Position numbers and translations under genes: made by a program. From assembly GCA_965220375.1 (NCBI GenBank), contig OZ244824.1, forward strand, positions 98,311 to 162,310: a stretch of DNA of 64,000 nt, in the 5' to 3' direction. Source of the DNA: Dehalococcoidia bacterium (GTDB lineage Bacteria; Chloroflexota; Dehalococcoidia; Lucifugimonadales; JAGWBF01). The stretch's first letter is position 1; each line of letters starts with the position of its first letter. Positions 9,450 through 43,494 of this stretch are shown here, in pieces. A model generated the notes under the pieces. The model was not told where the DNA came from. It saw only the letters and a program-made list of their open reading frames with translations, and ran no database searches.

Positions 9450-9766
9450 CTGCCCCGTACTTTGTACCAGTCGTGGTGTTAGTCTCGCGGGGTCATGGTC
9501 CTGCCCCATTCTCTGTACCAGTCGTAGTGTTAGTCTTGCAGGTCATTGGACCCCTGCCAAGGCCACCAGGGCAAAGGGTTCCGTTTGCTTCTGAGGTATG
9601 GACTATCTGGACATTCACACTATACGCCAAAAGCAAACGGAACCGTGAGACCCAATGGGAGTGTTGCCTGCTGGGGCCCCCTATCCTTCCCACTACATGA
9701 GTGGTTCAGATGATGGGGCAGGACCAACGACACGCGAGCCTAACATCGCAGTTGTATTTAAAAGGG
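9450..9766. repeat. Composite non-coding repeat: A units (9450-9500, 9501-9578), B palindrome (9577-9644) and an inverted A-like unit (9715-9766)
   Basis: A-unit core TGTACCAGTCGTRGTGTTAGTCT recurs at 16193, 16272 and 16326. The inverted unit GGGGCAGGACCA..CGCGAG.CTAAC matches the reverse complement of A1. Confidence 0.75.
9577..9644 (+). repeat. B palindromic element, copy B1 (68 bp; 14-bp perfect arms GGTTCCGTTTGCTT / AAGCAAACGGAACC)
   Basis: Read directly. Same family as 41675-41744 and 41892-41961; a half copy lies at 18586-18605. Confidence 0.85.
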
Positions 9767-15500: not shown

Positions 15501-15988
15501 TGGTTTCTGCTTAGGTCCATGGTGTGGAGGCTTGTAAGTCGGCCCAGAGCATCCGGGATCTCTCCAGTCAAACTATTATTATCGAGCTCCAAGACCCACA
15601 GGCCTGTAAGTCGGCCCAACGCTGCAGGTATGCTGCCCTTGAGGCTGCTATTCGCACCACCGTCTCCACCAAGCCACAACCCCCTGAGCCTTGCTGGAGA
15701 TCCTCCTATGGTAAGACCCTCCCACTTGTACATCGATGTATCGGCGTTCCAGATGAGCCTCCGTCCACCCTGCGATAGAATGTCTCGAGACTCCAGGAGT
15801 ACTTCGCAATCCTCCACTAACAAAGGGTTGTCTTCCGGGTTTTCCACAGCAATGCCACTGGAACAAGTCTCGGCCGCAGCATCGGCCACAACCATGTCTC
15901 TGTCCGATGACAGGAACATGATCAAGGTGATTAGGCCCACCTTCATGAACATTGCGAACGGTCCAAGGTTGGCAGGATGATTGGTCAT
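12596..15988 (-). CDS. Giant surface protein: signal peptide, about 21 LRRs, five ~94-aa cadherin-like repeats, C-terminal TM anchor
   Basis: Cap EDCEVLLESRDIL...WNADTSMYKWEGLTIGG. The LRR consensus is as in the paralogs. C-cap GCVPLGL...LKFC. Repeats carry TPVNDPPVAAGD...LLANDTDEENDTLSITAV.DAVNGRVLLDGATIIYEHDDSETTEGSF.YTVSD. TM anchor GLWVILLITVVAVAIASSGAVVVL + RNRNRT. Confidence 0.9.
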   Translation of the reverse strand: MTNHPANLGPFAMFMKVGLITLIMFLSSDRDMVVADAAAETCSSGIAVENPEDNPLLVEDCEVLLESRDILSQGGRRLIWNADTSMYKWEGLTIGGSPARLRGLWLGGDGGANSSLKGSIPAALGRLTGLWVLELDNNSLTGEIPDALGRLTSLHTMDLSRNQLEGGIPDALGRLTGLHTMDLSKNQLEGGIPDALGRLTSLHTMDLSRNQLEGGIPDALGRLTGLHTMDLSKNQLEGGIPDALGRLTTLHTMDLGKNQLEGGIPPALGDLVSLEGLLLFHNSLTGEIPTELGRLTNLKEMRLYGNQLSGEVPEELGALKNLTELHLSSNRLTGVIPEEFGGLTNLKSLSLGYNKLAGSIPAALGELFYLEWLDLWSNELTGGVPPELGKLNSLEILTLNNNKLSGQIPTEIGQLANLHLLWLNGNELTGEIPGEISKLSQLESLDLSDNELMGEIPGEISKLSQLEDLDLSDNQFFGKIPVELGRLSNLTSLSLSGNHLSGIIPRGFSSLEKLWILALRDNRLTGEIPPFLGGLANLSHLYLSGNMLTGEIPAALGLLANLGNLELGDNRLTGEIPSVLADLPNLTGFWVQANDLTGCVPLGLSRFYKDRFEDTNLKFCFAINDNPTVVDSSILLTVEEEGAIRIDESVLLANDLETENYTLRITDVGDAANGTVSLDVSTIVYVHNGSETTTDSFTYTASDVRHSSTATVTLTVTPVNDPPVAAGDMSAVDEGDTLYIETSALLVNDTDEENDTLSITAVKDAVNGRVLLDGATIIYEHDDSETTEGSFSYTVSDSTDTDTATVTFTVTPVNDPPVAAGDLETVDEGNTLYIEASALLANDTDEENDTLSITAVGDAVKGRVLLDGATIIYEHDDSETTEGSFLYTVSDGTDTDTATVTLTVTPVNDPPVAAGDMSAVDEGNTLYIEASALLINDTDEENDTLSITAVGDAVNGRVLLDGATIIYEHDDSETTEGSFSYTVSDSTDTDTATVTFTVTPVNDPPVAAGDLETVDEGNTLYIEASALLANDTDEENDTLSITAVGDAVNGRVLLDGATIIYEHDDSETTEGSFSYTVSDGTDADTATVKISVTLSDDGGIGLWVILLITVVAVAIASSGAVVVLRNRNRT
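12700..13860 (-). repeat. Four near-identical ~282-bp tandem coding repeats (cadherin-like units, alternating A/B subtypes)
   Basis: Long identical DNA blocks, e.g. GTCACTGTGAACGTAACTGTGGCAGTGTCTGTATCCGTGCTATCGCTCACGG, recur two units apart. Boundaries are approximate. Confidence 0.8.
15189..15548 (-). repeat. Five tandem 72-bp LRR-coding units (nearly identical)
   Basis: GCATCCGGGATCCCTCCTTCCAGCTGGTTT recurs at 15261, 15333, 15405 and 15477. The units encode alternating RLT(S/G)LHTMDLS(R/K)NQLEGGIPDALG. Confidence 0.9.
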
Positions 15989-19261: not shown

Positions 19262-19580
19262 CGGCCCTGTCGCTGGTAAGCCTCTCCTTCCCAGCCTCCA
19301 TGAACTTCTTGGTCCAGGAGTAGTAGGAATGGGGCTTGATTCCCTCTCGCCGCCACAGGTCACTCACGGTGACCTCGCGGCGGAAACCCTCCAGGACGAT
19401 GCGTATCTTGTCTTCCGGGGTCTACCTGCGCTTGGCAGCAGCCTTAACGGTGCGGACGAAGGACCTGGTTGCCTCTGTACGTTCATCAGCGGCGGTAGCT
19501 TTACCTGTTTCTGTCTGGGCCACTCCTCCATCTGTGAAGTATCTCCTGCATGTAAAGATACAATGGGACACCTGAGGGGG
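19262..19580 (-). mobile_element. IS-A fragment (left end + 5' part of orfA), inverted and abutting copy 2 head-to-head
   Basis: Alternate-frame ORFs on opposite strands translate to nearly the same peptide (MIPSRRHRSLTVTSRRKPSRTMRILSSGVYLRLAAALTVRTKDLVAS., 19336-19575 plus strand and 19501-19836 minus strand), showing an inverted duplication of about 300 bp. Confidence 0.8.
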
Positions 19581-21084
19581 TAGAAGAACCCGACAGATTT
19601 GAGGTGAGGTCAGCTCTCTGGATGAGGTAGATTACTTCAGATAGAGGAATGGTCCAGACAGAAACAGGTAAAGCAACCGCCTCTGATGAACGCGCAGAGG
19701 CAACCAGGTCCTTCGTCCGCACCGTTAAGGCTGCTGCCAGGCGCAGGTAGACCCCGGAAGACAAGATACGCATCGTCCTGGAGGGTTTCCGCCGCGAGGT
19801 CACCGTGAGTGACCTGTGGCGGCGAGAGGGAATCAAGCCCCACTCCTACTACTCCTGGACCAAGAAGTTCATGGAGGCTGGGAAGGAGAGGCTTACCAGC
19901 GACAGCGTGCGGGATGCCACCCAGGAGGAGGTCCATCAGCTCAAGCGGGAGAACGGAGAGCTAAAGCATCTGGTCGCCGATCTGTCCCTGGAAGTATATC
20001 GTCTCAAAAAAACATCCATACCCATGCCCCAGGGCGCCGGCGGTATCGGCAGATGAGTGGCCCAGAGAAGGCAGAGGTGCTGGACAAGGTGGCCTCATCT
20101 CCTCTGCCCAAGCGCAGGGTCCTCAGCGAGCTGAACGTTCCCAAGAGCACCTACTACCGGTGGCTAAGGCGGAAGGAGCAGCAAGGACTTGATGACGATG
20201 TGGGAAGAGGCAAGCCCCCGTAGAACAGGCTGACATCCCTGGAAGTCGGTCATGTTCTGTCGGCAGCCAGGGATATGCCAGACCTGAGTTGCAGGCAGTT
20301 GTCAGCATGGACCGCCGACAATAGGGGATTCTCCGTATCAGAGGCTACGGCCTACCGCATCCTGCGGAGGGAGGGGCTGGTGAAGAAGCCTGAGATGCGG
20401 CTGGCTGCGGGCAAGGAGTACCATCGGAAGACCACCAGCCCCCACCAGATATGGGCCACCGATGCCTCCTACTTCAGGGTAGTCGGATGGGGCTACTACC
20501 ACATGGTCACCGTCATGGACGACTACTCCAGATTCATCCTGGCCCACAAGCTTCAGAGGGACATGACCTCCAACTCCTTCACCGAGGTAGTGCAGGACGC
20601 CGCGGACAGGACTGGTATGGACCAGGTCCCTGTAGAAGACCGGACCAGGCTGCTGAGCGACAACGGCCCCGGCTATGTATCCAAAGCCTTCAGGGACTAT
20701 CTGGGCATGGTGGGCATCAAGCACATACTGGCAACACCCTTCCACCCTCAGACCAATGGGAAGCTGGAGCGCTACCACCAGATCCTCAAGCGTGATGTGA
20801 ACCAACTACCGTACGAGTTGCCTGCAGACTTAGAGGCGGCCATCGTGGCCTTCGTCAGCTACTACAACTACCGGCGCTATCACAAGGCCCTGGGGAACGT
20901 GACGCCCTCGGATGTCCTCAAGGGAAGGCGACCGGAGATCCTACGACGGAGGAAGGAGGTGCAGGCCCAAACGATTCAACGGCGAAGACGCCACAACAGG
21001 GCCCCTAAGGGAGCTGGCTAGACCTCAATCAGACCCCTGATCTCTCGGGTCTAAAACTGTCCCAGTTTTGCTGGTTGCCAACAG
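19562..21084 (+). mobile_element. IS-A copy 2, degenerate
   Basis: Collinear with copy 1 from AATGGGACACC to ..TTGCTGGTTGCCAACAG. It carries premature stops in both ORFs. Confidence 0.85.
19649..21021 (+). pseudogene. IS-A copy 2 orfA/orfB with nonsense mutations
   Basis: orfA has TAG at 19748-19750 where copy 1 has TAC (Tyr). orfB has TAG at 20221-20223 where copy 1 has TGG (Trp, ..NPPWNKL..). Confidence 0.85.
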
Positions 21085-21150
21085 TCCTACTGTGTGGAAG
21101 AAGAGTTCACGGAATCAGCGCAGGATCATATGTCCAGAGCGAACCTCAGC

Positions 21151-22473: not shown

Positions 22474-23694
22474 TCAACAGTTGGCCCGGTCTTCGATATA
22501 CAGGTGGCGCAACGCACCCGATAGACACGGGAAATCATTGCCATAAATCTCAATCTCGACTCCCCGCTCAACCATGTTCCACACCTCGGAAGGTATCTCC
22601 CCGCTTAGCTGGTTTTCGTGTAGAGTCAGACTCTTCAGGTTATCGAGGTTACCCAACTCGGAAGGTATCGCCCCGCTTAGCTGGTTTTCGTCTAGATTCA
22701 GACTTTCCAAGGTATCGATGTCGCCCAACCCGGAAGGTATCGCCCCGCTCAACTGGTTTCCGCTCAGGCTCAGCGATTCAAGCCTGTAGAAGTTTCCCCA
22801 CTCGGCTGGTATCTCCCCGCTTAGCTGGTTTCCGCTGAGGCTCAGGCCTAGTAGGTCTGAGTGGTTGCCCAGCCACGGCGGTATCCCGCCGCTCAATTCG
22901 TTATTAGAAAGGTGTAACTCCACTAGGTTGATGTTGCCCAACTCTGGTGGTAACGCCCCGCCCAACTGGGTGTTTTCGATGCGTAGCTCATACAGCTGCC
23001 AGAGGTTGCCTAGTTCAGGCGGTATCCCCCCACTAAGCCCCTCACCACGGAGCCACAGGTGTTGAAGGCTGGCCAGGTTGCCCAGCTCCGGGGGAATCTC
23101 CCCGGTCAACCCGTTCCCTTCGATTGACAAATCCCTCAGGTTGGAAAGGTTGCCCAGCTCCGGGGGAATCTCCCCCGTGAACCCGTTCCCCTGGATTGAC
23201 AAATTCGTCAGGTTGGAAAGGTTGCCCAGCTCCGGGGGAATCTCCCCCCTTAAATCGACGCCATGGAAGCCGCCAAAGAGGCCCAGTATTTCCAGGGCTC
23301 CGAGGTCGCCCAACTCAGAGGGAATCTCCCCGCTCAACCCCCCTCCAGACGCTGACCCCCCTATCCGCAACCAAATCACGCGGCCGTTGTCGTCGGTCGT
23401 GACTCCAGACCATTCGCCCAACGGCGCGTCGCTCAGCCAGTTTTCGCTGTCCTCCCAGTTTGGCCCGTCCAGCGCATTGTAGACGGTGACCAGGATTTCC
23501 CTGTCCGTTTCGGGCGAGCCCGGTGCAGGCGCACGGACTCTCTCGGTCGCCTCGGTGGCAGGCGCAGCGGTGGCAGCATCTTCTCCAGGCACTGCATCCC
23601 CGCCACAGGCGGCGAGCAGGGCGACCAGAATCAGCGCAAGGGCACAAAAGCGCAGGGGAGTGCGCCAAGTCGTCCCATGGAACATGTTGGTCAC
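22474..23694 (-). CDS. LRR lipoprotein (about 11 LRRs)
   Basis: Signal LILVALLAACGGD. N-cap DREILVTVYNALDGPNWEDSENWLSDAPLGEWSGV. Plant-type LRRs. Confidence 0.9.
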   Translation of the reverse strand: MTNMFHGTTWRTPLRFCALALILVALLAACGGDAVPGEDAATAAPATEATERVRAPAPGSPETDREILVTVYNALDGPNWEDSENWLSDAPLGEWSGVTTDDNGRVIWLRIGGSASGGGLSGEIPSELGDLGALEILGLFGGFHGVDLRGEIPPELGNLSNLTNLSIQGNGFTGEIPPELGNLSNLRDLSIEGNGLTGEIPPELGNLASLQHLWLRGEGLSGGIPPELGNLWQLYELRIENTQLGGALPPELGNINLVELHLSNNELSGGIPPWLGNHSDLLGLSLSGNQLSGEIPAEWGNFYRLESLSLSGNQLSGAIPSGLGDIDTLESLNLDENQLSGAIPSELGNLDNLKSLTLHENQLSGEIPSEVWNMVERGVEIEIYGNDFPCLSGALRHLYIEDRANC

Positions 23695-25009: not shown

Positions 25010-26059
25010 TCAGCAGAATGGCAGACCGCTGTAGTAGTCGTCGTCGCTATTCAGTACCCCTCGCAACCCTCCTGGTATGCACCCGGTCAACTGGTTAAAA
25101 TCTAAGCCCAGAACTTCCAGGTTCGAGAGTCTGCCCAGCTCGGGCGGTATCTCCCCACTCAAGTCGTTACCATATAGCTCCAGAATTTCCAGGTTGGAGA
25201 GGCTGCCCAGCTCGGATGGTATCTCCCCACTCAAGTCGTTACCGCCTAGCCCCAGACGTTTCAGGCTGGAGAGGCTGCCCAACTCGGACGGTATCTCCCC
25301 ACTCAAGTCGTTACCGCCTAGCCTCAGACGTTTCAGGCTGGAGAGGCTGCCCAACTCGGACGGTATCTCCCCAGTCAACTGGTTACCGTCTAAGTGCAGA
25401 AATTCCAGGGTGGAGAGGCTGCCCAGCTCGGACGGTATCTCACCACTGAACTGGTTGTCTTCAAGACGCACACTGCCTAGTCTGGGAAGGCTGCCCAACT
25501 CAGGCGGTATCTCGCCGCCTAACTGATTGCCGTGGAGTTCCAGGGCTGCCAGGTAATTGAGGTTGGCAAGTTCCACTGGAATTTCCCCGCTCACCTGGTT
25601 ATCCTTGGTTCCCAGTATTATCAGGTAAGTAAGGCTGCCCAGTTCGGACGGCAGCTCCCCGCTCAGCTGGTTGTCGGTAAGGCGCACATTAAAAACACGC
25701 CCGTCACTGTTAGTGTGGACCCCGTGCCATTCTGCAAGGGGAGCCTCGCTCAGCCAGTTTGTGTTGTTCGTCCAGTTGTCCCCGTCCATAGCATTATAGA
25801 ACGCAACCAGGACTTCCCTATCCGTGGCAACGGAGCCCTGGGGAGACCCAGACTCGCTCTCGGCCCCCTCAGTTGCCGGCGCAGCGACGGTCCCGGACGT
25901 GGACGAGGTCGAAGGCGCGTCGGAGCCGCAGGCCGCGAGCGCCGCCGTAAGGGCCAGCGCAAGGACAACGCTCAACAGGGTTATGTATCTTGTCGTGCGT
26001 GTACGGGTCGTTTTCTTTCCCCCACGGTCTTGACCGGCACCATATATCCACAGGTTCAT
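25010..26059 (-). CDS. LRR lipoprotein (about 9 LRRs)
   Basis: KKTTRTRTTRYITLLSVVLALALTAALAACGSD signal. N-cap DREVLVAFYNAMDGDNWTNNTNWLSEAPLAEWHGV. C-cap GCIPGGL....YYSGLPFC. Confidence 0.9.
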   Translation of the reverse strand: MNLWIYGAGQDRGGKKTTRTRTTRYITLLSVVLALALTAALAACGSDAPSTSSTSGTVAAPATEGAESESGSPQGSVATDREVLVAFYNAMDGDNWTNNTNWLSEAPLAEWHGVHTNSDGRVFNVRLTDNQLSGELPSELGSLTYLIILGTKDNQVSGEIPVELANLNYLAALELHGNQLGGEIPPELGSLPRLGSVRLEDNQFSGEIPSELGSLSTLEFLHLDGNQLTGEIPSELGSLSSLKRLRLGGNDLSGEIPSELGSLSSLKRLGLGGNDLSGEIPSELGSLSNLEILELYGNDLSGEIPPELGRLSNLEVLGLDFNQLTGCIPGGLRGVLNSDDDYYSGLPFC

Positions 26060-26242
26060 ACGTATCGTATAAGGGAGTCGCTATGGGTGTCAATGCTGAG
26101 ACACCCGTTTCGCCACTCCCAAATATGTGTTGGTATGTCGGCTTCCGCGGGGATGAGCGGGCGCCCATGCGCCATAGCCAACATGCGCTGGGAGCGCCGC
26201 CAAAACGATATGCCGTCCGTCCCCGGCTGAGGGCGCGTGGCT

Positions 26243-27283
26243 TCAGCAATAGGGCAGGCCGTTAAAGTCGTAATGCCCTGGCTTCAAACCAATGTGGTTT
26301 CGCAGGCTGCTTGGCACGCATCCGCTCAAGTCGTTGCCTTGGAGGTACAGACCTTCCAAGTAGAAGAGGCTGCCCAGCTCCGCCGGTATCTCCCCGCTCA
26401 AGTCGTTGTCGCCGAGGTTCAGCCCTACCAGGTTGGAGAGGCTGCCCAGCTCCGCCGGCATCTCCCCGCTCAAGCCGTTGCCGTAGAGGTTCAGAGATGT
26501 CAGGTTGGAGAGGCTGCCCAGCTCTGCCGGTATCTCCCCGCTCAACTGGTTGTTTTCGAGCCACAGCCTTCCCAGGTTGGAGAGGCCGCCCAACTCTGCC
26601 GGTATCTCCCCGCTCAAGTAGTTTTCGTTGAGGGACAGCGCTTCCAGGTTGGAGAGGCTGCCCAGCTCCGCCGGTATCTCCCCGCTCAAGTCGTTGCGGC
26701 CGAGGCTCAGCCTTGTAACGCGCCCGTCGTCGTCGGTGGTGACGCCCTCCCATTCGCCGAGGGGAGCGTCGCTCAGCCAGTTGTCGCTTTCATACCATGT
26801 CTCACCGTTCGTTGCGTTGTAGACGGCAACCAGCGCTTCACGGTCCGTTTCGTCGGAGGTCGGCCCAGTGGCGGGCGGCGCAGTCGCATCGGTGGCGGTA
26901 GTCGCGTCCCCTGACCCTGTCGTGGTAGGCGTCCGTGCGGGGGAGACCGGCGTCTCCGTTGGCGTGGACGCGGTCCGGTCGGGGCCTGTCACGCCGGACG
27001 GCTCATCAGAGCCGCAGGCCGCGAGCGCTGCCGTAAGGGCCAGCGCAAGGACAAAGCTCAACAGGGTCACATATCTTGTCGTGCGTGTACGGGTTATTTT
27101 CTTTCCCTCCCGTTCTTGACCGGCGCCATAGTCACCACGCGCTGGGAGCGCCGTCTCTATTCCATCTACTGGCCTGTCGAACGCCAAGCGGACATCTCCG
27201 AACTTCATTGGCAAAAGTACCCCAGCCATTTTAAACCCCGTGTCATATGAGACGTGTAATAAGTAGCCCCCTTTGTATATCAA
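26243..27283 (-). CDS. LRR lipoprotein (about 6 LRRs); start uncertain (candidates ATG 27208, GTG 27070)
   Basis: KKITRTRTTRYVTLLSFVLALALTAALAACGSDEP signal. PT-rich linker. N-cap DREALVAVYNATNGETWYESDNWLSDAPLGEWEGV. C-cap GCVPSSL...FNGLPYC. The upstream part of the ORF lies in a repeat shared with 32566-32931. Confidence 0.85.
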   Translation of the reverse strand: MIYKGGYLLHVSYDTGFKMAGVLLPMKFGDVRLAFDRPVDGIETALPARGDYGAGQEREGKKITRTRTTRYVTLLSFVLALALTAALAACGSDEPSGVTGPDRTASTPTETPVSPARTPTTTGSGDATTATDATAPPATGPTSDETDREALVAVYNATNGETWYESDNWLSDAPLGEWEGVTTDDDGRVTRLSLGRNDLSGEIPAELGSLSNLEALSLNENYLSGEIPAELGGLSNLGRLWLENNQLSGEIPAELGSLSNLTSLNLYGNGLSGEMPAELGSLSNLVGLNLGDNDLSGEIPAELGSLFYLEGLYLQGNDLSGCVPSSLRNHIGLKPGHYDFNGLPYC

Positions 27284-30901: not shown

Positions 30902-32134
30902 TCAGCCCCCGCCTGAGGGCGCGTCGCTTAAGCAGAAGCCACGATAGGTGTCGGTAGTAACGTTGGACCCCAACTGGTCTCGCAGGCTGCTTGGTATGCA
31001 CCCGCTCAAGTCGTTCTGGCCGAGGTGCAGATGTGTCAGGTTGGAGAGGCTGCCCAACCACGCCGGTATCTCCCCGCTCAAGGCGTTCTCGGTGAGCCAC
31101 AGCTGTGTCAGGTTGGAGAGGCTGCCAAGCTCCGCCGGTATCTCCCCGCTCAAGTCGTTGTAGGAGAGTTCCAGCACTGTCAGGTTGGAGAGGCTGCCGA
31201 ACTCCGGCGGTATCTCCCCGGTCAACCAGTTCACGCTGAGGTTCAGATATTCCAGGTTGGAGAGGCTGCCAAGCTCCGCCGGTATCTCCCCGCTCAAGTC
31301 GTTGCTGTGGAGGTACAGATATATCAGGTTGGAGAGGCTGCCCAGCTCTGCCGGTATCTCCCCGCTCAACTCGTTCTTGTTGAGGTACAGCTCTATCAGG
31401 TTGGAGAGGCTGCCCAGCTCTGCCGGTATCTCCCCGCTCAACTCGTTCTTGTTGAGGTACAGCTCTATCAGGTTGGAGAGGCTGCCCAGCTCCGCAGGTA
31501 TCTCCCCGCTCAACTCGTTGTTGCCGAGGTACAGCTCTGTCAGGTTGGAGAGGCTGCCCAGCTCCGCCGGTATCTCCCCGCTCAACCCGTTCTTGTTGAG
31601 GTACAGCTCTGTCAGGTTGGAGAGGCTGCCCAGCTCCGCAGGTATCTCCCCGCTCAACCCGTTCTGGTTGAGGTCCAGTGTCTCCAGCCTGGAGAGACTG
31701 CCCAGCTCCGCAGGTATCTCCCCGAGCAAGCGGTAGCCGCTGAGGTTCAGCCCTATAACGCGCCCATCGTCGTCAGTGGTGACGCCCCCCCATTCGCCGA
31801 GGGGTGCGTCGCTCAGCCATTTGGCATTGTCTCCGCCGTAGATCTCAGACGAAAGCCATTGCCAACCTGCCGTTGCGTTGTGGAGGGCAACCAGCGCCTC
31901 CCGGTCTGCTTCGACGGAGTCGGAGGCCGCGGGCGGCTCTGTCGCAGGCGCATCGGTGGCGGTGGGCGCGTCCACTGCCCCTGTCGTGGAAGGCGTCCGT
32001 GCGGGGGAGGCCGGCGTCTCCGTTGGGGTAGACGCGGTCCGGTCGGGGCCTGTCACGCCGGACGGCTCATCGGAGCCGCAGGCCGCGAGCGCTGCCGTAA
32101 GGGCCAGCGCAAGGACAATGCTCAACAGGGTCAC
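30902..32134 (-). CDS. LRR lipoprotein (about 11 LRRs)
   Basis: GTG start. LALALTAALAACGSDEPSGVTGPDRTASTPTETP is nearly identical to the 26243 paralog. C-cap GCIPSSL.....YRGFC. Confidence 0.9.
   Translation of the reverse strand: MTLLSIVLALALTAALAACGSDEPSGVTGPDRTASTPTETPASPARTPSTTGAVDAPTATDAPATEPPAASDSVEADREALVALHNATAGWQWLSSEIYGGDNAKWLSDAPLGEWGGVTTDDDGRVIGLNLSGYRLLGEIPAELGSLSRLETLDLNQNGLSGEIPAELGSLSNLTELYLNKNGLSGEIPAELGSLSNLTELYLGNNELSGEIPAELGSLSNLIELYLNKNELSGEIPAELGSLSNLIELYLNKNELSGEIPAELGSLSNLIYLYLHSNDLSGEIPAELGSLSNLEYLNLSVNWLTGEIPPEFGSLSNLTVLELSYNDLSGEIPAELGSLSNLTQLWLTENALSGEIPAWLGSLSNLTHLHLGQNDLSGCIPSSLRDQLGSNVTTDTYRGFCLSDAPSGGG
31325..31468 (-). repeat. Two identical 72-bp LRR-coding units
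   Basis: TCAGGTTGGAGAGGCTGCCCAGCTCTGCCGGTATCTCCCCGCTCAACTCGTTCTTGTTGAGGTACAGCTCTA is repeated back to back and encodes LSNLIELYLNKNELSGEIPAELGS twice. Confidence 0.9.
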
Positions 32135-33400: not shown

Positions 33401-34054
33401 TCACAGCAGCCGCGGACTCTGGTTCCCGGAGGCCCGGTTCAGGGCTTCTGCGTCGCAGACTGCCATCTGATCGGCGGAGTAGGGCCGCAGCAGTTCCGTG
33501 AGAACTCCGGGGTCCTGTATCTGCTCGTCCAGCCACATCTCCTCCGTCTCCTTGGGCAGGACGACTGGCATCCGGTCATGGATGGGACCAATCAGGTCAT
33601 TGGCTGCGGTGGTGATTATGGTGCAGCTGGGTATTAGCGTGCCTGAAGGGGCCTTCCACGTCTCCCAGAGCCCAGCAAAAGCAAAGGGTTCTCCTGAAGC
33701 CAGGGAGATTCGCATGGGACGCTTGCCGTTGGGCGTTTTCTGCCACTCGTAGAAGGCGTCGGCCAGCATCAGGCAGCGCCGCCGCCTCAGCGCCGTGCGG
33801 AAGGCTGGCTTCCCCGCCACCGTCTCGCCCCGGGCGTTGAACATGCGGGAGCCCACCGACAACTCATTGGTCCACGAGGGCACCAGGCCCCAGCGCATCA
33901 CCTCAGCCTGGCGGGGGCCGCTGCCTCGCACGGTTAAGACCCGACTGGTGGGGGCAATGTTGTGGTAGGGAGAGTAGTCCTGGAACTCCTCATCGAAGGA
34001 GAACCGGCTTTGAAGGTCCCGCAGGTCGGCTATCAGGCTGTAACGTCCGCACAT
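33401..34054 (-). CDS. SOS-response-associated peptidase (SRAP/YedK family)
   Basis: The N-terminal MCGRYSL catalytic Cys2 signature plus ..WGLVPSW and ..NARGETV..KPAFR motifs. Confidence 0.85.
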   Translation of the reverse strand: MCGRYSLIADLRDLQSRFSFDEEFQDYSPYHNIAPTSRVLTVRGSGPRQAEVMRWGLVPSWTNELSVGSRMFNARGETVAGKPAFRTALRRRRCLMLADAFYEWQKTPNGKRPMRISLASGEPFAFAGLWETWKAPSGTLIPSCTIITTAANDLIGPIHDRMPVVLPKETEEMWLDEQIQDPGVLTELLRPYSADQMAVCDAEALNRASGNQSPRLL

Positions 34055-34254: not shown

Positions 34255-35359
34255 TTGGGCATGGCGGAGGGCGCCTCCGGTGTCTTCGGCAACGGTCAGG
34301 AACAGAAGGCAAAGAACGACGACGCCCTGGTGGCCCGCCTGTACCAGGAGATCGGGCAGCTGAAGGTGGAGCGGGATTTCCTGGCGGAGAGGTCCGGTCC
34401 ATTACCCCGGCACGTCGGCGGCAGATGGTGGATCGGGAACACTCTAAGCTGCCGATAGTGCGGCAGTGCGCGTTGCTGGGGGTAACCCGTTCCAGCATCT
34501 ACTACCGCCCCAGGATGGCCTCGGAAGAGGATCTGTCCCTGATGGGCGAGATCGACCGGCAGTACCTGGAGACGCCTTTCTACAGGTCGAGGCGGATGAG
34601 GGCCTGGCTGGAGAGGCGCGGTGTACAGGTGAACCGGAAGCGGGTGCAGCGTCTGATGCGAGTCATGGGGCTAAGGGCCATCTACCGGCGTCCCAGCACC
34701 AGCCGAAGGTCGGCGGAGCACCCGGTTTATCCCTACCTGCTGAGGAATGCCAAAATAACCCAGCCCAACCAGGTGTGGGCGGCGGACATCACCTACCTGC
34801 CCATGGCCCGAGGGTTCCTCTATCTGGTGGCGGTAATGGACTGGTACAGCCGGTACGTGTTGGCCTGGAGATTGTCCAACACTCTCGACGCCGGCTTTTG
34901 CGCCGGGGCTCTGGAGGAGGTTCTGGGCATGAACAAGCCGGAGGTGTTCAATACCGACCAGGGAAGCCAGTTCACCAGCCTGGAGTTCACCCAGATCCTC
35001 CAGGACCGAGGTGTGAAGATCAGCATGGACGGGAAGGGCCGGTACTCTGACAACATCTTTGTGGAGAGGCTGTGGCGGACGGTGAAGTACGAAGAGGTGC
35101 ACCTGAAAGCCTACGCCAACATCCCGGAGGCCCAGAGGGGGCTGGAAGACTATTTCCGGTTCTACGACGAGCTGAGGCCCCATCAGGCCCTGGGCTACCG
35201 GACCCTGGCCGAGGTGTTCCATGGAGAGCAGGGGATCGGGGAAGGGGAGTATAGTGGAAGGAGATCTTCACCGGGTACCAGCGCAGAACGACCGACAGGA
35301 GCACCGGGATTCTCACTTAACTCTGCCCTAATTCTGTCTAAATAACCGGGTCCACCTCA
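34255..35359 (+). mobile_element. IS-B copy 2, 5'-truncated (lacks the left IR and most of orfA)
   Basis: Homology to copy 1 starts inside orfA (..EGASGVFGN.Q..K.KNDDALVARLYQEIGQLKVERDFLAERSGP) and ends at the right IR CCGGGTCCACCTCA (35346-35359). Confidence 0.85.
34425..35345 (+). CDS. IS-B copy 2 OrfB (rve DDE core, apparently intact ORF)
   Basis: 306 aa, collinear with 4006-4947. The DDE-region motifs are conserved. It cannot be expressed as OrfAB because orfA is truncated. Confidence 0.75.
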   Translation: MVDREHSKLPIVRQCALLGVTRSSIYYRPRMASEEDLSLMGEIDRQYLETPFYRSRRMRAWLERRGVQVNRKRVQRLMRVMGLRAIYRRPSTSRRSAEHPVYPYLLRNAKITQPNQVWAADITYLPMARGFLYLVAVMDWYSRYVLAWRLSNTLDAGFCAGALEEVLGMNKPEVFNTDQGSQFTSLEFTQILQDRGVKISMDGKGRYSDNIFVERLWRTVKYEEVHLKAYANIPEAQRGLEDYFRFYDELRPHQALGYRTLAEVFHGEQGIGEGEYSGRRSSPGTSAERPTGAPGFSLNSALILSK

Positions 35360-35439
35360 GTCAAGCGTTTTGGCACACACGTATATAATTCCCAATAGAA
35401 ACGGGATATGGCTGCAGAATACGACCTTTCGTTCCGGGT

Positions 35440-38400
35440 CTAGCCCTCGTTGTCGACCGCCCCCGCTTCAACCAAGATCGCCTCGACTTCAGGCCCTCCT
35501 TGTCTCTTTGCGATGACGAGTGGAGTTAAGCCGTCGTACCATGCCGTTTGGGATTGGCATGTGTCGTTTACGTCGATGCCCGCAGCGATTTGTGCCTTCA
35601 CCTCTGCAATATCTGCGTAATTGACGGCTGAGCACAATGCCTCGTTCGCCTTGGGTTCTAGTGGGGGCCTGGCGTTCAGATTGCCATGATCGATGTCGAG
35701 AGTCCCCAAGTTGAGAACTGGAGATTCGGTCGTCGAGCCGAATCTCCACGGGTCGTCACTTGATCCGTCACCGTCCAGGTCCACGTTCCAGTCGGCGTAA
35801 ACGCCCGTGTACCCGGTGGGCGATCGCAACTCGACGGTGGTCTTGCCCTCGCCTCCAGTGCTATCGGATTGACCGGAGGTCTCCGTATCCCAGTAGCAGT
35901 TGGCTACGGTGCCATAGTTACCGTTCCATCCAATCAGCCCTCCTCCACTTTGCGGGACTCCGCCCGTGGAGAAGCAAACTGTTACGACGCCTTGGTTCGA
36001 TCCAATCAGCCCGCCGTAGCGGTCTGCTCTGCCGGACACTGATCCCTCTGCGTAGGCGGCAGTGACAACACCAGTGTAGCGATTGTCCCCAACAAGGCCG
36101 CCAACGTCGGCAAACCCGCTGCCGGACACGCCGCCCGTAGCGTAACTGGCAACGATGACGCCGGCGTTCACGCCAGCCAGGCCGCCGAAGTTGTCACCTT
36201 GCCCCGATACGCCGCCGGTAGCATAGCTAGTGATGATCTTGCCTTCGGCCTCGTTGTCCCCAACAAGGCCGCCCACGTCGGCAAACCCGCTGCCGGACAC
36301 GCCGCCCGTAGCGTAACTGGCAACGATGACGCCGGCGTTCACGCCAGCCAGGCCGCCGAAGTTGTCACCTTGCCCCGACACGTCGCCGGTGGCGTAGCTA
36401 TTGGTGATCTCGCCTCCAATTTCGTTGTCGCCCACCAGCCCGCCAACGGTGGGAAAGCAGTCGCCGCAGGCCTTGGTGGACACTTTGCCCGTGGCGTAAC
36501 TATCGGTGATGGCGCCGGAGTTTGCGCCTACCAGACCACCGAAGGTGTCCGTGAATCCGGACACGACACTGGTGGAGTGACTGCCGGCTATCGCTCCGCT
36601 GCTTCCCCCAACCAGACCGCCGCCATTGGCATAGCAGGTACGACTTTCAGAGCCGAACAGGGGAAAGCCAACCAAGTCGTTGACAAGATCGGTTATCACT
36701 CCAGATGCACTGCCGCCGGATCTACGAGCGCTAGCTACGTTGCCGGCGGAGCGACTGTTCTCAATATTGCCTGCATTGAGGCCAACCAGACCGCCAATGT
36801 GATCAACACAACCAGCAACGAGACCATCAGCATAGCTGTCGTCAATTACGCCGAGGCCAACTCCGGCCAGCGCGCCTACAGCTCCGTATCCGGAAGCCGC
36901 TACGCTTGCGTCCACCAATCCAATACCCGAGACTGTGCTTCCGGCGCCGAGAACTCCGAACAAACCGACATTGGGCGACCTGCGAATGTACAAATTGGAG
37001 ATTGTGTGGTCTCCGCCTTCAAAGGTGGCATCAAAGGGGTCTTTGCTTTGACCTATGGGATTCCACCCGCTGCCGCCGTTCCAATAGACATCGCCCTCGT
37101 CCGCTTCACCGTTTCCATTGGTGTCAAAGTCAAGATTGGCTGTCAACTCATACCCGGCACAACTTTCGATAGAACACATCGTGCCGGTGTCGGCATCGGA
37201 AAACGCGATCGCATAGTCGGCATTATCGGAGATGCCGTCTCCGTCCGTGTCCCACCGAATAGCATCAAGCTGCGTCAGGTTGTCCACCTCTATGAGACCG
37301 TCACCGTCTCGGTCACGCGCTGACGATGAAGTTTCGGTCGAGGTTGGCGGGTCTGATGTTGGAGTTGCAGTCTGAGTCGCCACAGGTTGCGGTGTGGGGG
37401 TGTCCGATGTCCTCGTTGTCGAAGAATCAGACGCCGGCTCAGCCTCCACCGGATCCGAATCGATTAGCTGGGCAGGATAGTGTGAGTCGATTTCCGAGCA
37501 TCCTCCACTGTTGCAGCTAACTACCCAGTAATAGTTTCCGCCGTCGTCTGGGCTGGTCGGGTTGGTGTGGACGTAGCTCGTCCCAGTGACGTCCGCAGCC
37601 AACTCCCCGCAGAATCTCGGTGTGCCGTCACTAGTCAACGAACAGACGTCGTCGAAGAAATCGTCGTGGTAGACCTTGTAGTAGTCCGCCCCATCCACCG
37701 CGTCCCAACTGACACGTATCGTCGAACCGTCCCAGGCATACTGCGGATTGGTCCCGTTAGGCCGCAGTATCCTCCCGCTTAACTGGTTACCATCAAGGCT
37801 CAGATTGGGTATCTTGCCAAGTGCAGCCGGTATCTCCCCCCTCAACTGGTTATCAGCGAGGTCCAGTCGTTGCAGGTTGAGTAGATTGCCCAGCTCAGTC
37901 GGCATCTCCCCACTCAACTGGTTCTCACTGAGGTCCAGTCGTTGCAGGTTGAGTAGATTGCCCAACTCAGATGGTATCTCCTCCCTCAACTGGTTATCAG
38001 CGAGGTCCAGTCGTTGCAGGTTGAGTAGATTGCCCAACTCAGATGGTATCTCCCCGCTCAACCGGTTATGATCAAGTTCCAGTCGTTGCATGTTGAGAAG
38101 ACTACCAAGTGCAGCCGGTATCTCCCCGCTCAACTGGTTACTATTGAGGCGCAGACGTTCCAGGCTGAGTAGATTGCCCAGTTCAGCCGGCATCTCCCCG
38201 CTCAACCGGTTATCACGGAGGCTCAGGGCAGTAACACACTCGCCCACAACGCGATCATTCGAAGTGATTCTATTGGCGCTGACACCGGCCCAATCGCCAA
38301 GTGGAGCGTCGGTGAGCCAGTTCGTATTGTTCCTCCAGTTCGGGCCGTCAGTGGCGTTGTAGAGCGCAACCAGCACCGCTTCATCCCTGCTGCGGGGCGC

Positions 38401-39018
38401 GCATGTAGGCAAAAAGGCAGGCCCTGTCGAACTCCGCTCGGAATCGGCTGTCGTGGTGGCATCGGGCTGAGGCGTATCGAACTCTCCCTCGTCGGTCGGC
38501 TCAGAATCGGATTCGCCTGTACATCCGGCCGCGGACAACCGCTCACGGACATCCGCGGGCATGGCATCCCATGCCGCTCCGACTTCCTCAAATAAGGACA
38601 GAGTCTCGTTGTCAAGGAAGAGAATAAACGGATCGAAGATTGCGTCTTGGGGTTTTGCATCGACCAGCCTCTTCGCGGCTGTCCATCCCGCCAGGACCTT
38701 GTTGTGCCAGTCGGCTATTTCTGTCGGTGGGTCGATCGACTCCATCCTCTCGATAAGTCCTGCGTAGAACGTCGAGACTTCACGGTTCGTGTAATCCTCG
38801 TTGTCGTCCAGTTCCTCTTGGGCTCCCTCGGAACAGAATGCTTCGTATTCGTCCCACGCTCCAGAGTCGCCATTTCTGATGGCCGTGGATTCCGTAGTGT
38901 CGCTACAGGCGGACATTGCGATGATGATAAGCAGAAGACCCGTCAGAATGCTGGCCCAGCGTAAGGTCCTGATGTCGAAGTTCATTTGCGTCCTCCCATC
39001 AATGGGCTGCTTGGTCAT
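35440..39018 (-). CDS. Giant chimeric surface protein: lipoprotein-like signal, helical N-domain, LRR block, FN3-like domain, calcium-binding-like DxDxDG stretch, GLUG-motif repeat region, C-terminal ankyrin repeat
   Basis: Signal LLLIIIAMSACSD. Cap RDEAVLVALYNATDGPNWRNNTNWLTDAPLGDWAGV plus 7 LRRs. DRDGDGLIEVDNLTQLDAIRWDTDGDGISDN. About 10 repeats of GGLVG.N.G.I..SYATG.VSG. ANK-like LTPLVIAKRQGGPEVEAILVEAGA. Confidence 0.85.
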   Translation of the reverse strand: MTKQPIDGRTQMNFDIRTLRWASILTGLLLIIIAMSACSDTTESTAIRNGDSGAWDEYEAFCSEGAQEELDDNEDYTNREVSTFYAGLIERMESIDPPTEIADWHNKVLAGWTAAKRLVDAKPQDAIFDPFILFLDNETLSLFEEVGAAWDAMPADVRERLSAAGCTGESDSEPTDEGEFDTPQPDATTTADSERSSTGPAFLPTCAPRSRDEAVLVALYNATDGPNWRNNTNWLTDAPLGDWAGVSANRITSNDRVVGECVTALSLRDNRLSGEMPAELGNLLSLERLRLNSNQLSGEIPAALGSLLNMQRLELDHNRLSGEIPSELGNLLNLQRLDLADNQLREEIPSELGNLLNLQRLDLSENQLSGEMPTELGNLLNLQRLDLADNQLRGEIPAALGKIPNLSLDGNQLSGRILRPNGTNPQYAWDGSTIRVSWDAVDGADYYKVYHDDFFDDVCSLTSDGTPRFCGELAADVTGTSYVHTNPTSPDDGGNYYWVVSCNSGGCSEIDSHYPAQLIDSDPVEAEPASDSSTTRTSDTPTPQPVATQTATPTSDPPTSTETSSSARDRDGDGLIEVDNLTQLDAIRWDTDGDGISDNADYAIAFSDADTGTMCSIESCAGYELTANLDFDTNGNGEADEGDVYWNGGSGWNPIGQSKDPFDATFEGGDHTISNLYIRRSPNVGLFGVLGAGSTVSGIGLVDASVAASGYGAVGALAGVGLGVIDDSYADGLVAGCVDHIGGLVGLNAGNIENSRSAGNVASARRSGGSASGVITDLVNDLVGFPLFGSESRTCYANGGGLVGGSSGAIAGSHSTSVVSGFTDTFGGLVGANSGAITDSYATGKVSTKACGDCFPTVGGLVGDNEIGGEITNSYATGDVSGQGDNFGGLAGVNAGVIVASYATGGVSGSGFADVGGLVGDNEAEGKIITSYATGGVSGQGDNFGGLAGVNAGVIVASYATGGVSGSGFADVGGLVGDNRYTGVVTAAYAEGSVSGRADRYGGLIGSNQGVVTVCFSTGGVPQSGGGLIGWNGNYGTVANCYWDTETSGQSDSTGGEGKTTVELRSPTGYTGVYADWNVDLDGDGSSDDPWRFGSTTESPVLNLGTLDIDHGNLNARPPLEPKANEALCSAVNYADIAEVKAQIAAGIDVNDTCQSQTAWYDGLTPLVIAKRQGGPEVEAILVEAGAVDNEG

Positions 39019-39324
39019 GGATGTAGGCTCCCTCTTTTGTGTTTCCGGCCCCCAGGCCGCCTCAGTCCGTGAAGATATGCCCCAGGCCCATATCGTCGGC
39101 CAAGTCGAGCAGCGCCATCATGTGCCGCATGCTGGCACGGTCTTTCTTCCAGCACCTCGTCGTCTAGGGGCTTTGCTCCAAAAGGGCCAGTTGTTCCAAA
39201 AGTCCGAAGTTTGTCCTGTAGTAGCCCCAGCCTGTTTGAGTCTCGGCGGTCACTCTACAGTAAGCCTCGGCTCAGGAAAACGGTCAATTGCGCACCTTGA
39301 ATCCGGGAGATCACACGACCCCGA

Positions 39325-39388
39325 AGTCTCGGGTTCTTCTATCTCTTCAGGTGTCCCATTATTGCTGGTTGCCAACAGACCTACGGCC
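39325..39388 (+). repeat. Solo IS-A-like right end
   Basis: ..TCTCGGGTTCTTCTATCTCTTCAGGTGTCCCATTATTGCTGGTTGCCAACAGACC aligns with the IS-A right ends (3603-3648, 21041-21085). There is no transposase upstream. Confidence 0.65.
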
Positions 39389-40404
39389 TACAGTGCGCCC
39401 GGACCGACCAGCTTACGCAAGAAATGCGCAAAATCTTTCAGCTGCTTGGTATCCTCCTCCGACAGGCCATCGGGCTCAAAGTGCATCACGTCGTTCCGAA
39501 TGTTTCTGACGGAATCGAGGTGTTTGACAAAAGTTCCCCGGTGAACCGTCACATTCAGTAACTCCCAGTTATCTTCGTTTTCCAGAAGCCGACAGTATTC
39601 ACCGAGCGTTAGGTCTGCAGAGCCGTTGATGGTCCTCTCAATGTCGAAAGAGGGCGTTTCACCACGCATTTGTTCGATGGTGAACTTCTTATAGATAAGT
39701 TGGCGCAAATACCCCTCTATCTCCCCAATGAACAGGAATGGACCAGCCAACTGCATTAGTTGGTTCGATAGGTCTGTTGCTGTAACGATGCCAGTTATGG
39801 TGTTGTCCGAGCCTCGCACAAGTACGTATCCGTGTTCGGCGACCACTTGTATGGCATCGAATAAAGGAGCGTCAATGGCAAGTTCTTTCGCGGTCTCCAT
39901 ACAATCACGAACACGTTCGCATTTACGGCCAAAAGAGAGATGAGCACCGATTAATTTCCAGCTGACAATCCCTTTTACTGTTCGCCCATTCTCCATGACG
40001 GGAAGTTGCGAAAAGTCCTGTAGCTCCATTATTGTTGCAGCTTCCGCTAGAGCATTGTCAGGTTTAACGCTCACTGGCTTATTGTTCGCCGCTTCAAGGG
40101 TTCCAACGCGGTATGTTGAGTCGGACGGTTGTCCTGAAGATGGGGAGCCGTCTGCTTCCTGGTCCAATTCGATCAATATCTTTGAGCCTGCGTACTGGAA
40201 CTCAAAATCTGGAACGACGCGAAGATTCGCCTGTTCCAAGTCATTCCGGATACGACTATTGACTGAAGCTCCGCGTCTCTCATACCCATACAAACGTACC
40301 AATTCACGTGCCGTAATTTCGTGTGGGGTGGGAACCGCGCCTTTGGCGCTTTGTTCCTGCATTTGCTGAGCGATTTCTGCGAGTCTATTCTTCACCGCAC
40401 TCAT
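39388..40404 (-). CDS. CBS-pair domain protein with C-terminal HEPN-like (Rx4H) domain and an unassigned ~100-aa N-terminal domain
   Basis: Two CBS-like modules (..SVKPDNALAEAATIMELQDFSQLPVMENGRTVKGIVSWKLI.. and ..IDAPLFDAIQVVAEHGYVLVRGSDNTITGIVTATDL..). The C-terminal helical region carries VRNIRNDVMHF (R-x4-H). Confidence 0.7.
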   Translation of the reverse strand: MSAVKNRLAEIAQQMQEQSAKGAVPTPHEITARELVRLYGYERRGASVNSRIRNDLEQANLRVVPDFEFQYAGSKILIELDQEADGSPSSGQPSDSTYRVGTLEAANNKPVSVKPDNALAEAATIMELQDFSQLPVMENGRTVKGIVSWKLIGAHLSFGRKCERVRDCMETAKELAIDAPLFDAIQVVAEHGYVLVRGSDNTITGIVTATDLSNQLMQLAGPFLFIGEIEGYLRQLIYKKFTIEQMRGETPSFDIERTINGSADLTLGEYCRLLENEDNWELLNVTVHRGTFVKHLDSVRNIRNDVMHFEPDGLSEEDTKQLKDFAHFLRKLVGPGAL

Positions 40405-40467
40405 GTCCGTGGCACTCCTCTAATCCCGGTTACGCGACGATCCGCAACTTCTCCTCACTGGGTTAGC

Positions 40468-40752
40468 TGAGGTAGACCCAGTTATTTAGACAGAATCAGG
40501 GCAGAGTCAAGTGAGAATCCCGGCTCTCCTGCCAGTCGTTCTGCGCTGGTACCCGGTGAAGATCTCCTTCCACTATACTCCCCTTCCCCGATCCCCTGCT
40601 CTCCATGGAACACCTCGGCCGAGGTCCGGTAGCCCAGGGCCTGATGGGGCCTCAGATGGTTGTAGAACAGGAAGTAGTCTTCAGCCCCCTCTGGGTCTCC
40701 AGCATGTTGGCGTAGGCTTTCAGGTACACCTCTTCGTACTTCACGGTCCGCC
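40468..40752 (-). mobile_element. IS-B copy 3: 3'-terminal ~285-bp remnant
   Basis: Degenerate IR TGAGGTAGACCCAG and the orfB C-terminal coding sequence collinear with 35060-35359 and 3992-4290. Confidence 0.8.
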
Positions 40753-40948
40753 GGAGCTGATCGCCGAGCAGGTGGGGGTCAGCGTGGCCAAGGCCCGCCA
40801 GTGGATGAACGTCTGGAAGGCGGCGGAGCTGAGGACACCCTACGAGGTCATAGCGTCGAGTCTGTATCTGAGCATCAACCAGGTGCAGCGGTTGGTGAAG
40901 GCGGCCTGGGTGATGGGGGTACTCCTGTCGGCGCGGACCCGGTACTAG
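40753..40948 (+). pseudogene. HTH-containing gene fragment (phage/regulator-like), 5'-truncated by the IS-B remnant
   Basis: ELIAEQVGVSVAKARQWMNVWKAAELRTPYEVIASSLYLSINQVQRLVKAAW. It begins abruptly at the IS remnant boundary. Confidence 0.35.
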
Positions 40949-41674
40949 AAGCGGAAGCACGCGGGCTGGGTGCACATCGCAGCCTGGAGGTAGGCGAGGG
41001 ACCGGCCTCGTGGGGCGGTGCTGCGGGTGCTCCAGGGTGATGTTCCGAGAGTAAAAGGCGCGACGGCGGAAATAATTATCTATGAATTATGGGGAATATT
41101 CTGGACATCACGAATGAAAGGAGGCAACGACCGGCGATTTGACCGTCGATTTCTCGTAGCTGGAGCATGGCGATCTCGGCGATGTCGGAGATTTGACCGG
41201 CGATTTTGCGACAGCACGAACAAAAAGAGGAAAATGAGCGACAACTCAGCTATAAAATGGACGGACGCCACATGGAATCCGACGACGGGCTGCACCAAGG
41301 TCTCTGCGGGCTGCGACCGGTGCTATGCTGAGCGGATCGCGCTGAGGTTCGGCAGGAGCTTTGACCTGGAACTCCACCCTGACCGGCTGGAGAAACCGTT
41401 GACATGGCGGAAGCCTCGGAGGGTGTTCGTCAACTCGGTGTCGGACCTGTTCCACCGGGATGTTCCCTGGGGATTCGTTGACCAGGTGTTCGGCGTGATG
41501 GAGGCGGCCGAGCATCACACCTACCAGCTGCTTACGAAGCGCAGTTCCACCATGAGGGATTATCTGCGGTCGAGGTACGCCGGCAGGGAGTGCCCAGCTC
41601 ACATCTGGTGTGGTGTGTCGGTCGAGGACCGGAAAGCCCTGGTGAGAGTGAAGCATCTACAGGAGAGCCCCGCG

Positions 41675-41744
41675 GGTTCCGTTTGCTTTTGGTGTATGGT
41701 GTGGCTATGTCCAGATAGTCCATACCTCAGAAGCAAACGGAACC
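41675..41744 (-). repeat. B palindromic element, copy B2 (70 bp)
   Basis: Exact reverse complement of B3 (70/70 by manual comparison). It is inserted in the DUF5131 coding sequence after ..CAGGAGAGCCCCGCG. Confidence 0.9.
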
Positions 41745-41891
41745 CCCGCGCCCAATCCGGTGACATCGGACGGGCGCCAGGTCCGGACTCACCCCGGACG
41801 ATCACCTAGGCGATCCCGGTCAGTTGCCCGAGCGACAGGTCCAGCCCATCAATCAACGGCTCACACGACAGGAACCACACTGACGCGGGGC

Positions 41892-41961
41892 GGTTCCGTT
41901 TGCTTCTGAGGTATGGACTATCTGGACATAGCCACACCATACACCAAAAGCAAACGGAACC
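41892..41961 (+). repeat. B palindromic element, copy B3 (70 bp)
   Basis: GGTTCCGTTTGCTTCTGAGGTATGGACTATCTGGACATAGCCACACCATACACCAAAAGCAAACGGAACC, with the inner stem GTATGG/CCATAC. Confidence 0.9.
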
Positions 41962-42148
41962 CCTCAATTCTATCCATTCGAGGTCCGCTACCGAACCCTT
42001 GGGAAGACGCTGGTGGAGATTTCCCGGAGGCAGCCACCTCCGCACTGACATCGTGGCGCACGGGCAGACTCGCTCCGATGCGGTTTCCTACCCCGTATCT
42101 GACCACAATGTTGTAGCCGGGAGTCTTCTGTAGGCTCACAGGCTACCA

Positions 42149-43416: not shown

Positions 43417-43494
43417 AATGCCGCCGTCAATGACAGTCTGGGGCGTGCACTAGTAAATGCCGCCGTCAATGACAGTCTGGGGCGTGCACTAGTA
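43417..43494. repeat. Perfect 39-bp tandem duplication
   Basis: AATGCCGCCGTCAATGACAGTCTGGGGCGTGCACTAGTA occurs at 43417-43455 and 43456-43494. Confidence 0.9.

Follow-up and report, generated by a model that had tools for sequence, protein, structure and literature searches.

A probable ortholog of DS-11, a stand-alone CBS-HEPN anti-phage protein, in a Dehalococcoidia (Chloroflexota) genome

Here, we analysed a single gene within a 64,000-nucleotide stretch of a Dehalococcoidia bacterium genome (GenBank assembly GCA_965220375.1, contig OZ244824.1, positions 98,311 to 162,310; hereafter the window), for which a prediction made from the sequence alone had proposed a stand-alone protein combining a CBS pair with a HEPN domain. 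The gene lies on the minus strand at 39388-40404. It is an intact open reading frame (ORF) of 338 amino acids with an ATG start and its stop codon at 39388-39390, and both the coordinates and the domain order given by the original prediction were borne out. An AGAGGAG ribosome-binding site (Shine-Dalgarno sequence) is located 9 nt 5' of the ATG, in an upstream leader (40405-40466, minus strand) which presumably also contains the promoter and which travels with the gene in other genomes, as judged by the points where DNA homology ends. We read this gene as an ortholog of DS-11, a stand-alone CBS-HEPN anti-phage protein for which a ligand-gated RNase mechanism is proposed, and we estimate the probability of this reading at about 0.8.

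DS-11 was described in the DefensePredictor study (bioRxiv 10.1101/2025.01.08.631726, 2025; Science 2026, PMC13092281) as a one-protein system composed of CBS and HEPN domains, which was cloned from E. coli and protects E. coli MG1655 against phage. Defence was abolished in each of the mutants Y157A (CBS), R330A and H335A (HEPN catalytic residues); Y157 is predicted to contact an adenine base, a dimer with ATP was modelled with AlphaFold 3, and the ligand itself was stated by the authors to be unknown (PMC13092281). The validated gene is found on the E. coli KE47 chromosome (NZ_CP141089.1, 3333490-3334587; locus L087), in a degraded island by a tRNA-Ile gene, where it adjoins an IS3 fragment and a tyrosine-recombinase gene of only 603 nt. 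This 4.9-Mb chromosome is entered as a plasmid in PLSDB.

The protein encoded in the window matches the NCBIfam model NF053863.1 ("DS11_antiphage", CBS domain-containing anti-phage protein), a curated NCBI equivalog model of length 305, with 352.4 bits against a cutoff of 260. All model positions (1-305 of 305) are covered by residues 33-329 of the protein, and the remaining NCBIfam matches are weak and concern generic CBS modules. When compared by BLASTP with E. coli DS-11 (WP_000257686.1, 365 amino acids; sequence as given in supplementary file 7 to the DefensePredictor paper), the window protein showed 39% identity over 98% of the length (E 1e-82). The alignment is collinear (residues 3-332 against 2-359 of the E. 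coli protein), and its sole large gap falls in a linker where the E. coli protein has 31 additional residues. The residues Y157, R330 and H335 of the E. coli protein correspond to F131, R303 and H308 here. The proposal of a HEPN RNase or defence effector that is gated by a ligand and senses it through a CBS pair is thus supported: it matches the description of DS-11, the score passes the family cutoff, and the residues tested by mutation are either kept or remain aromatic.

Fusions of CBS and HEPN domains within the Swt1-like clade, with active Rx4-6H motifs, had already been catalogued by Anantharaman et al. in 2013 (PMC3710099). Since the CBS-HEPN fusion has been characterised before, in print and as a curated NCBI model, it is not novel; judged by its sequence, the window protein is a divergent further member of the known DS-11 family and not a new type of system.

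The architecture of the protein was assessed with an AlphaFold2 (AF2) model of its full length (mean predicted local distance difference test score, pLDDT, 81). Residues 1-80 (40165-40404; this and all further domain coordinates are on the minus strand) make up the N-terminal domain, a helix and then a small strand-helix-helix-strand-strand unit; the domain is conserved also in E. coli DS-11, and R44, R53 and D66 in it are invariant (all conservation counts refer to an alignment of 43 homologs). A variable linker of low confidence follows (residues 81-99; 40108-40164), disordered in the model at residues 83-96 (pLDDT <50) and coinciding with the gap in the pairwise alignment. An unassigned N-terminal domain of about 100 residues had been predicted; the lack of an assignment was confirmed, and the domain itself measures about 80 residues, the rest being the disordered linker. 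No recurring family was found in a Pfam scan of 17 N-terminal domains, and neither a PDB sequence search nor fold comparison returned a match for this part. The domain is absent from the quoted domain description of DS-11 (PMC13092281). CBS-HEPN homologs that align only to residues ~105-327 of the window protein, and thus have no N-terminal domain, are encoded on haloarchaeal plasmids (NZ_CP084091.1, NC_006394.1 and others). It is possible, yet in our estimation rather unlikely, that the N-terminal domain is a new sensor or substrate-selection module, binding for instance a phage protein or a specific RNA, with the CBS pair acting as a second, metabolic gate. If this were true, the haloarchaeal homologs would mean that the family contains both "two-input" and "one-input" CBS-HEPN effectors.

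The tandem CBS pair (Bateman module), with its two motifs in the beta-alpha-beta-beta-alpha arrangement, was confirmed. It occupies residues 100-208 (39781-40107), is modelled with pLDDT 85-96, and two stretches are recognised by the Pfam CBS profile (E 4e-13, 49.8 bits, cutoff 24). In a Foldseek search of the full model against the PDB, CBS pairs were the only structures matched, with probability 1.0 and, for many of them, a template-modelling score (normalised by target) of 0.7-0.8. The top matches are nucleotide-bound proteins, led by OpuCA with c-di-AMP and followed by human CBS with S-adenosylmethionine (SAM), MJ0100 with SAM or methylthioadenosine, CorB with Mg-ATP, and DarB with AMP, c-di-AMP or cGAMP. 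Position 131 (codon 40012-40014), which corresponds to the adenine-contacting tyrosine of the E. coli protein, is tyrosine in 27 homologs and phenylalanine in 16, and is therefore aromatic in all 43. The second CBS motif carries an invariant G205-I-V-T208-x-x-D211. Motifs of this form are canonical for ribose binding in CBS domains, and by its sequence the one found here may have the same role. The module also matches the NCBIfam family CbpB (E 3e-5). Since the scores of the window protein fall far under the cutoffs of the CbpB/DarB-type families, the identity of the ligand cannot be transferred from them.

A 29-residue helix (residues 209-237) joins the CBS pair to the all-helical C-terminal domain (residues 209-338; 39391-39780), which a separate AF2 model also shows as all-helical (pLDDT 84, predicted template-modelling score 0.79). 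The predicted VRNIRNDVMHF signature is present, and its R-x4-H portion, the predicted catalytic motif R303-N-D-V-M-H308, is encoded at 39481-39498. R303, N304, H308 and F309 are invariant in 43 of 43 homologs, in agreement with the expectation that the R-x4-H residues would be conserved, and the sequence conforms to the Rx4-6H motif of HEPN type, with a polar residue (N304) following R303. The suggestion that the domain is of the Swt1-like HEPN kind agrees with the published HHpred analysis, in which residues 252-359 of the E. coli ortholog were assigned to Pfam HEPN_Swt1 with 98% probability (PMC13092281). Below the Pfam threshold, the C-terminal domains of 14 of the 20 family members searched match HEPN_Swt1 (PF18731), the best at E 2.2e-4 and 21.9 bits (cutoff 27.5), and these matches run collinearly along profile positions 43-114 of 115, a stretch that takes in the motif helix. 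In three family members the domain matches HEPN_RiboL-PSP, and a weak PADLOC match to the tail of CARF_HEPN was also seen (E 0.035). We thus accept the C-terminal domain as a putative Swt1-like HEPN domain on the basis of the motif, the sub-threshold profiles and the published HHpred and mutagenesis results; the comparison of folds described below did not recover a HEPN structure.

A search of 5.8 billion proteins yielded 1063 relatives, four at 87-93% identity and the rest at 59% or less, mostly in Dehalococcoidia/Chloroflexota metagenome-assembled genomes (MAGs). Among GTDB representative genomes 486 encoding loci were found, mostly in Dehalococcoidia as well, with further carriers in Acidobacteriota, Verrucomicrobiota, Planctomycetota, cyanobacteria, Burkholderiales and others. 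Every family-invariant residue is retained in the window protein. The ratio of nonsynonymous to synonymous substitution rates (dN/dS) against three close alleles is 0.23-0.33 and is similar in all three domains, which shows that purifying selection still acts on the gene and that it is no relic.

At the DNA level the gene stands apart from its surroundings. It has a foreign base composition, with a GC content of 48-51% as compared to 56-64% in both flanks. DNA homology to the loci of the closest homologs in other genomes, L006 (92.5%), L001 (89.8%) and L002 (90.3%), breaks off at 39378-39383, just past the stop codon, and at 40448-40454 in the leader; the matching spans are L001:9951-11027, L002:250-1317 and L006:5951-7022, and their flanks are unrelated to those in the window. 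A metatranscriptome contig of 1952 nt likewise matches the window at 39378-40467 with ~95% identity. Since homology ends near the gene borders, the unit common to these genomes is the gene with a leader of ~50-60 nt, about 1.09 kb in total. In the window, two different insertion sequence (IS) termini abut this unit exactly; a position of the gene between IS ends had been predicted. On the 3' side of the gene lies a solo terminal repeat of an IS with an rve transposase ("IS-A"; 39325-39378), which aligns with the ends of full copies and ends 10 nt past the stop codon; two full copies, in both of which transposase domains were found, are located at ~2110-3646 and ~19550-21090. On the other side, abutting the leader, a truncated IS3-family copy ("IS-B" in the prediction) retains the last ~290 nt with its terminus (40467-40757, minus strand), as established from the alignment of IS copies and the inverted-repeat pairs I1 and I3. 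It shows 92.7% identity to 35074-35360 and 85% to 3992-4277. The best explanation is that the gene arrived by horizontal transfer as the 1.09-kb unit, which now lies between two IS termini.

An intact IS3-family copy (34267-35360, plus strand; rve OrfB at 34425-35345, identified by domain scan and inverted repeats) and the remnant at 40467-40757 are inverted relative to each other with their right ends inward, and the 5.1 kb between them hold the DS-11 gene and its downstream neighbour, a gene at 35440-39018 for a leucine-rich repeat (LRR)/GLUG protein of 1192 amino acids. The arrangement is reminiscent of a composite transposon, but a functional one built from these two ends was rejected as a description of the present locus, since no more than ~290 nt of the right-hand copy are left. 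Word depths of 2,500-4,500 are reached by this IS3-family element in the metagenome runs, as against ~10-100 for the flanks. Upstream, beyond the IS remnant, the predicted "prophage scar" turned out to be a truncated DUF5131 (phage Gp37/Gp68) gene at 41018-41809, which matches its profile of 243 positions only at 1-153 and passes into a palindromic element of 289 bp (41674-41962; arms of 78 nt, 97% complementary). A further copy of the palindrome arm lies at 9576-9644 (93% identical), and the element resembles an insertion of the miniature inverted-repeat transposable element type.

These surroundings bear on whether the gene is still functional. It is bordered by IS termini of truncated copies and by the disrupted DUF5131 gene, and a scan of 38900-41100 for sigma-70 consensus promoters found none (terminator-like sites there did not exceed the shuffle expectation), as would be expected of a decaying passenger left behind by IS activity. 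Against this speak the full-length frame, the retention of all family-invariant residues, the dN/dS values, the ribosome-binding site and the presence of a near-identical allele in metatranscriptome contigs, and we regard decay as very improbable. Two metatranscriptomic runs contain contigs that span the whole gene at ~95% identity, which suggests that a close allele is transcribed in situ. In addition, in the metagenome runs X1 and X2, two DS-11 alleles coexist over 39500-40150 on separate contigs and at comparable depth, differing at ~12-13 positions per ~200 nt, indicating strain-level diversity at this locus.

The gene appears to have no partner. In line with the original prediction, the ORFs and domains next to it in the window include no antitoxin, MNT or cyclase. 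We also scanned two ORFs on each side of 37 GTDB loci (148 proteins) and found no conserved neighbour, the commonest Pfam family occurring four times and the commonest PADLOC family three times. HEPN domains are common as toxins of toxin-antitoxin (TA) pairs such as HEPN-MNT, and the gene resides in mobile DNA, so one might consider it the toxin half of a TA or addiction module whose antitoxin, a protein or an RNA, went unrecognised. However, no neighbouring ORF is conserved in the 37 loci, the common unit of the gene with ~50-60 nt upstream leaves no room for a protein antitoxin, and cloning of the E. coli gene by itself was tolerated (PMC13092281). A module of this kind is therefore hardly to be expected. 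The specific pairing with MNT or with another antitoxin was rejected, because no partner gene is adjacent in the window and none is conserved in the 37 loci.

The genomic context of the homologs is mixed, and the concern that they might lie consistently in housekeeping operons was not borne out. The closest ones, at 87% identity, are found in defence islands: L001 contains two type ISP restriction-modification genes together with Abi_2, PaREP1, NYN and several transposases, and in L002 type I restriction-modification genes (HsdR/HsdS), a BstXI-like nuclease and PIN are nearby. Another homolog, P0053, lies among Phd/YoeB, HigB, AAA_21 ATPase and Schlafen/AlbA_2 genes. Defence families (DrmMI, type IIG restriction-modification, Dnd/Ssp, PglX, mad2) stand next to a minority of the 37 loci. 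The commonest neighbours are Aminotran_3 and PIG-L, which flank 4 of the 37 loci and are syntenic in one Dehalococcoidia clade; in L003, L011, L012, L016 and related loci the homolog occupies a constant site, with a gene for a class-III aminotransferase on one side and one for a PIG-L deacetylase on the other. Such synteny suggests vertical inheritance in that clade, unlike the mobile context elsewhere. Altogether, the survey fits a gene that has no partner and lies in defence islands only sometimes, and systems of this partner-less, context-mixed kind are what DefensePredictor was built to find (PMC13092281).

The same survey bears on the most plausible alternative to a role in defence, namely that the protein is a housekeeping or stress-response RNase, whose CBS pair senses the cell's own adenine-nucleotide pool and tunes RNA stability, and which is not dedicated to phage. 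Anantharaman et al. (PMC3710099) indeed suggested that fusions of CBS and HEPN serve ligand-regulated RNA stability, several Dehalococcoidia homologs are placed between metabolic genes (the Aminotran_3/PIG-L flanks in 4 of 37 loci, and L003 and L005), and no phage-borne copy was found among 50,697 phage records. However, the E. coli ortholog protects against phage, the distribution is patchy over many phyla, the gene in the window has a foreign GC content and IS-delimited flanks, and the closest homologs lie in restriction-modification/Abi islands. We thus consider a housekeeping role unlikely, and a DS-11-type defence protein remains our preferred reading.

Several observations weigh against assigning the gene to DS-11-type defence. 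Identity to the validated E. coli protein is only 39%, and the published experiments, on defence itself as well as on the need for the tyrosine of the CBS pair and the arginine and histidine of the HEPN domain, concern only the E. coli ortholog, and neither this protein nor this host. The tyrosine required for defence in E. coli is phenylalanine (F131) here, and the mutant reported there was Y157A, not a change of tyrosine to phenylalanine. In the literature searched, no biochemical demonstration of the metal-independent endoribonuclease activity expected of HEPN proteins, of a ligand or of dimerisation was found for any family member. As to the databases, Pfam recognised the CBS pair as anticipated. 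A scan with PADLOC-DB v2.0.0 (2023) left the window protein unrecognised, the family being absent from that release, and HEPN_Swt1 was not matched by its C-terminal domain. All Pfam HEPN matches in the family fall under the gathering score, and the C-terminal domain of the window protein itself matches only DUF4145 (E 0.11). In a Foldseek search with the model of that domain no HEPN structure was found (best E 1.1 in the PDB and 0.45 in BFVD), and PDB profile searches with the whole protein, the C-terminal domain and the N-terminal domain gave CBS matches or noise only. In this analysis, it is thus the motif and the sub-threshold profile matches that carry the HEPN assignment. The absence of homologs from the 50,697 phage records, searched by tblastn, and the position of several homologs among housekeeping genes (P0015 and P0083 in metabolic settings) point in the same direction. 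Finally, the metatranscriptome evidence consists of assembled contigs, and RNA contigs may hold DNA carry-over.

The host genome is probably that of a sponge symbiont. A sequencing run in which the sequence occurs bears the label "sponge metagenome", and several of the MAGs with homologs are named like sponge-derived bins. Many genes in the window carry 72-nt (24-amino-acid) leucine-rich repeats (530-1996, 5644-9402, 12596-15988, 22474-23694, 25010-27283, 30902-32134 and 35440-39018); expansion of such eukaryotic-like LRR proteins is typical of sponge symbionts. Two further features were noted along the window: a gene for an SOS-response-associated peptidase (SRAP, YedK-like; 33401-34054) directly beside the intact IS3-family copy, and a 39-nt unit that occurs twice in perfect tandem (43417-43494) upstream of a cytochrome P450 gene fragment.

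How such a protein could act may be pictured as follows. Two protomers would dimerise through their CBS pairs, in the usual manner of Bateman modules, and each pair would bind an adenine-containing ligand, with the aromatic residue at position 131 and the T208/D211 motif contributing. Upon phage infection the occupancy of this site would shift, and the long connecting helices would reorient, so that the two HEPN domains come together and form a composite R-x4-H site from R303 and H308. This site would cleave RNA and thereby stop phage production, probably through growth arrest or abortive infection. We infer this scheme, including the direction of the ligand gating, the identity of the ligand and an RNA target. 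A related prediction, in which nucleotide ligands regulate RNA cleavage or RNA stability through CBS-HEPN fusions, was made in PMC3710099.

As the DS-11 family and its role in defence are already published, the value of the present analysis is incremental. It indicates that DS-11 is widespread and under selection far beyond Enterobacteria, and that the three experimentally required residues are conserved or conservatively replaced across that phylogenetic range. It also describes the gene as travelling in a minimal cassette of ~1.1 kb without a partner. The diverse orthologs, together with the archaeal variants devoid of the N-terminal domain, provide a comparative basis for approaching the ligand of the CBS pair, the role of the N-terminal domain and the RNA target.

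Among known systems, the logic resembles that of the CARF-HEPN effectors of type III CRISPR. In Csm6 and Csx1, a dimerising sensor that binds nucleotides controls a HEPN RNase which is itself dimeric and has a composite Rx4-6H site. DS-11 differs from them in having a CBS pair instead of CARF and in having no cyclase or Cas10 partner, and it does not belong to the same family: a PDB profile search and Foldseek gave no significant sequence or fold match of the window protein to Csm6/Csx1. Since there is no cyclase or Cas10 partner, the ligand of DS-11 would have to be supplied by host metabolism or by the phage. By sequence and by structure, the CBS module comes closest to the stand-alone CBS receptors CbpB/DarB and CbpA and to the CBS domains of OpuCA; these, unlike DS-11, act on partner proteins or transporters and have no nuclease. 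With the Swt1-like/Abi2 clade fusions, including "CBS and HD (alr3009)" (PMC3710099), DS-11 shares the combination of CBS and HEPN, and C-terminal domains of the family match HEPN_Swt1; it differs from the alr3009 type by having no HD domain, the alr3009 and Pelobacter examples being compared here by their description. The nearest counterpart is E. coli DS-11 itself. Compared to it, the window protein has a linker shorter by 31 residues and F131 in place of Y157, and its host belongs to Chloroflexota instead of Enterobacteriaceae. The two proteins are alike in the order of N-terminal domain, linker, CBS pair, long helix and HEPN domain, in the identical motif RNDVMHF and in the aromatic residue at the ligand-contacting CBS position, and both are encoded by single genes in a degraded mobile island beside an IS3 remnant.

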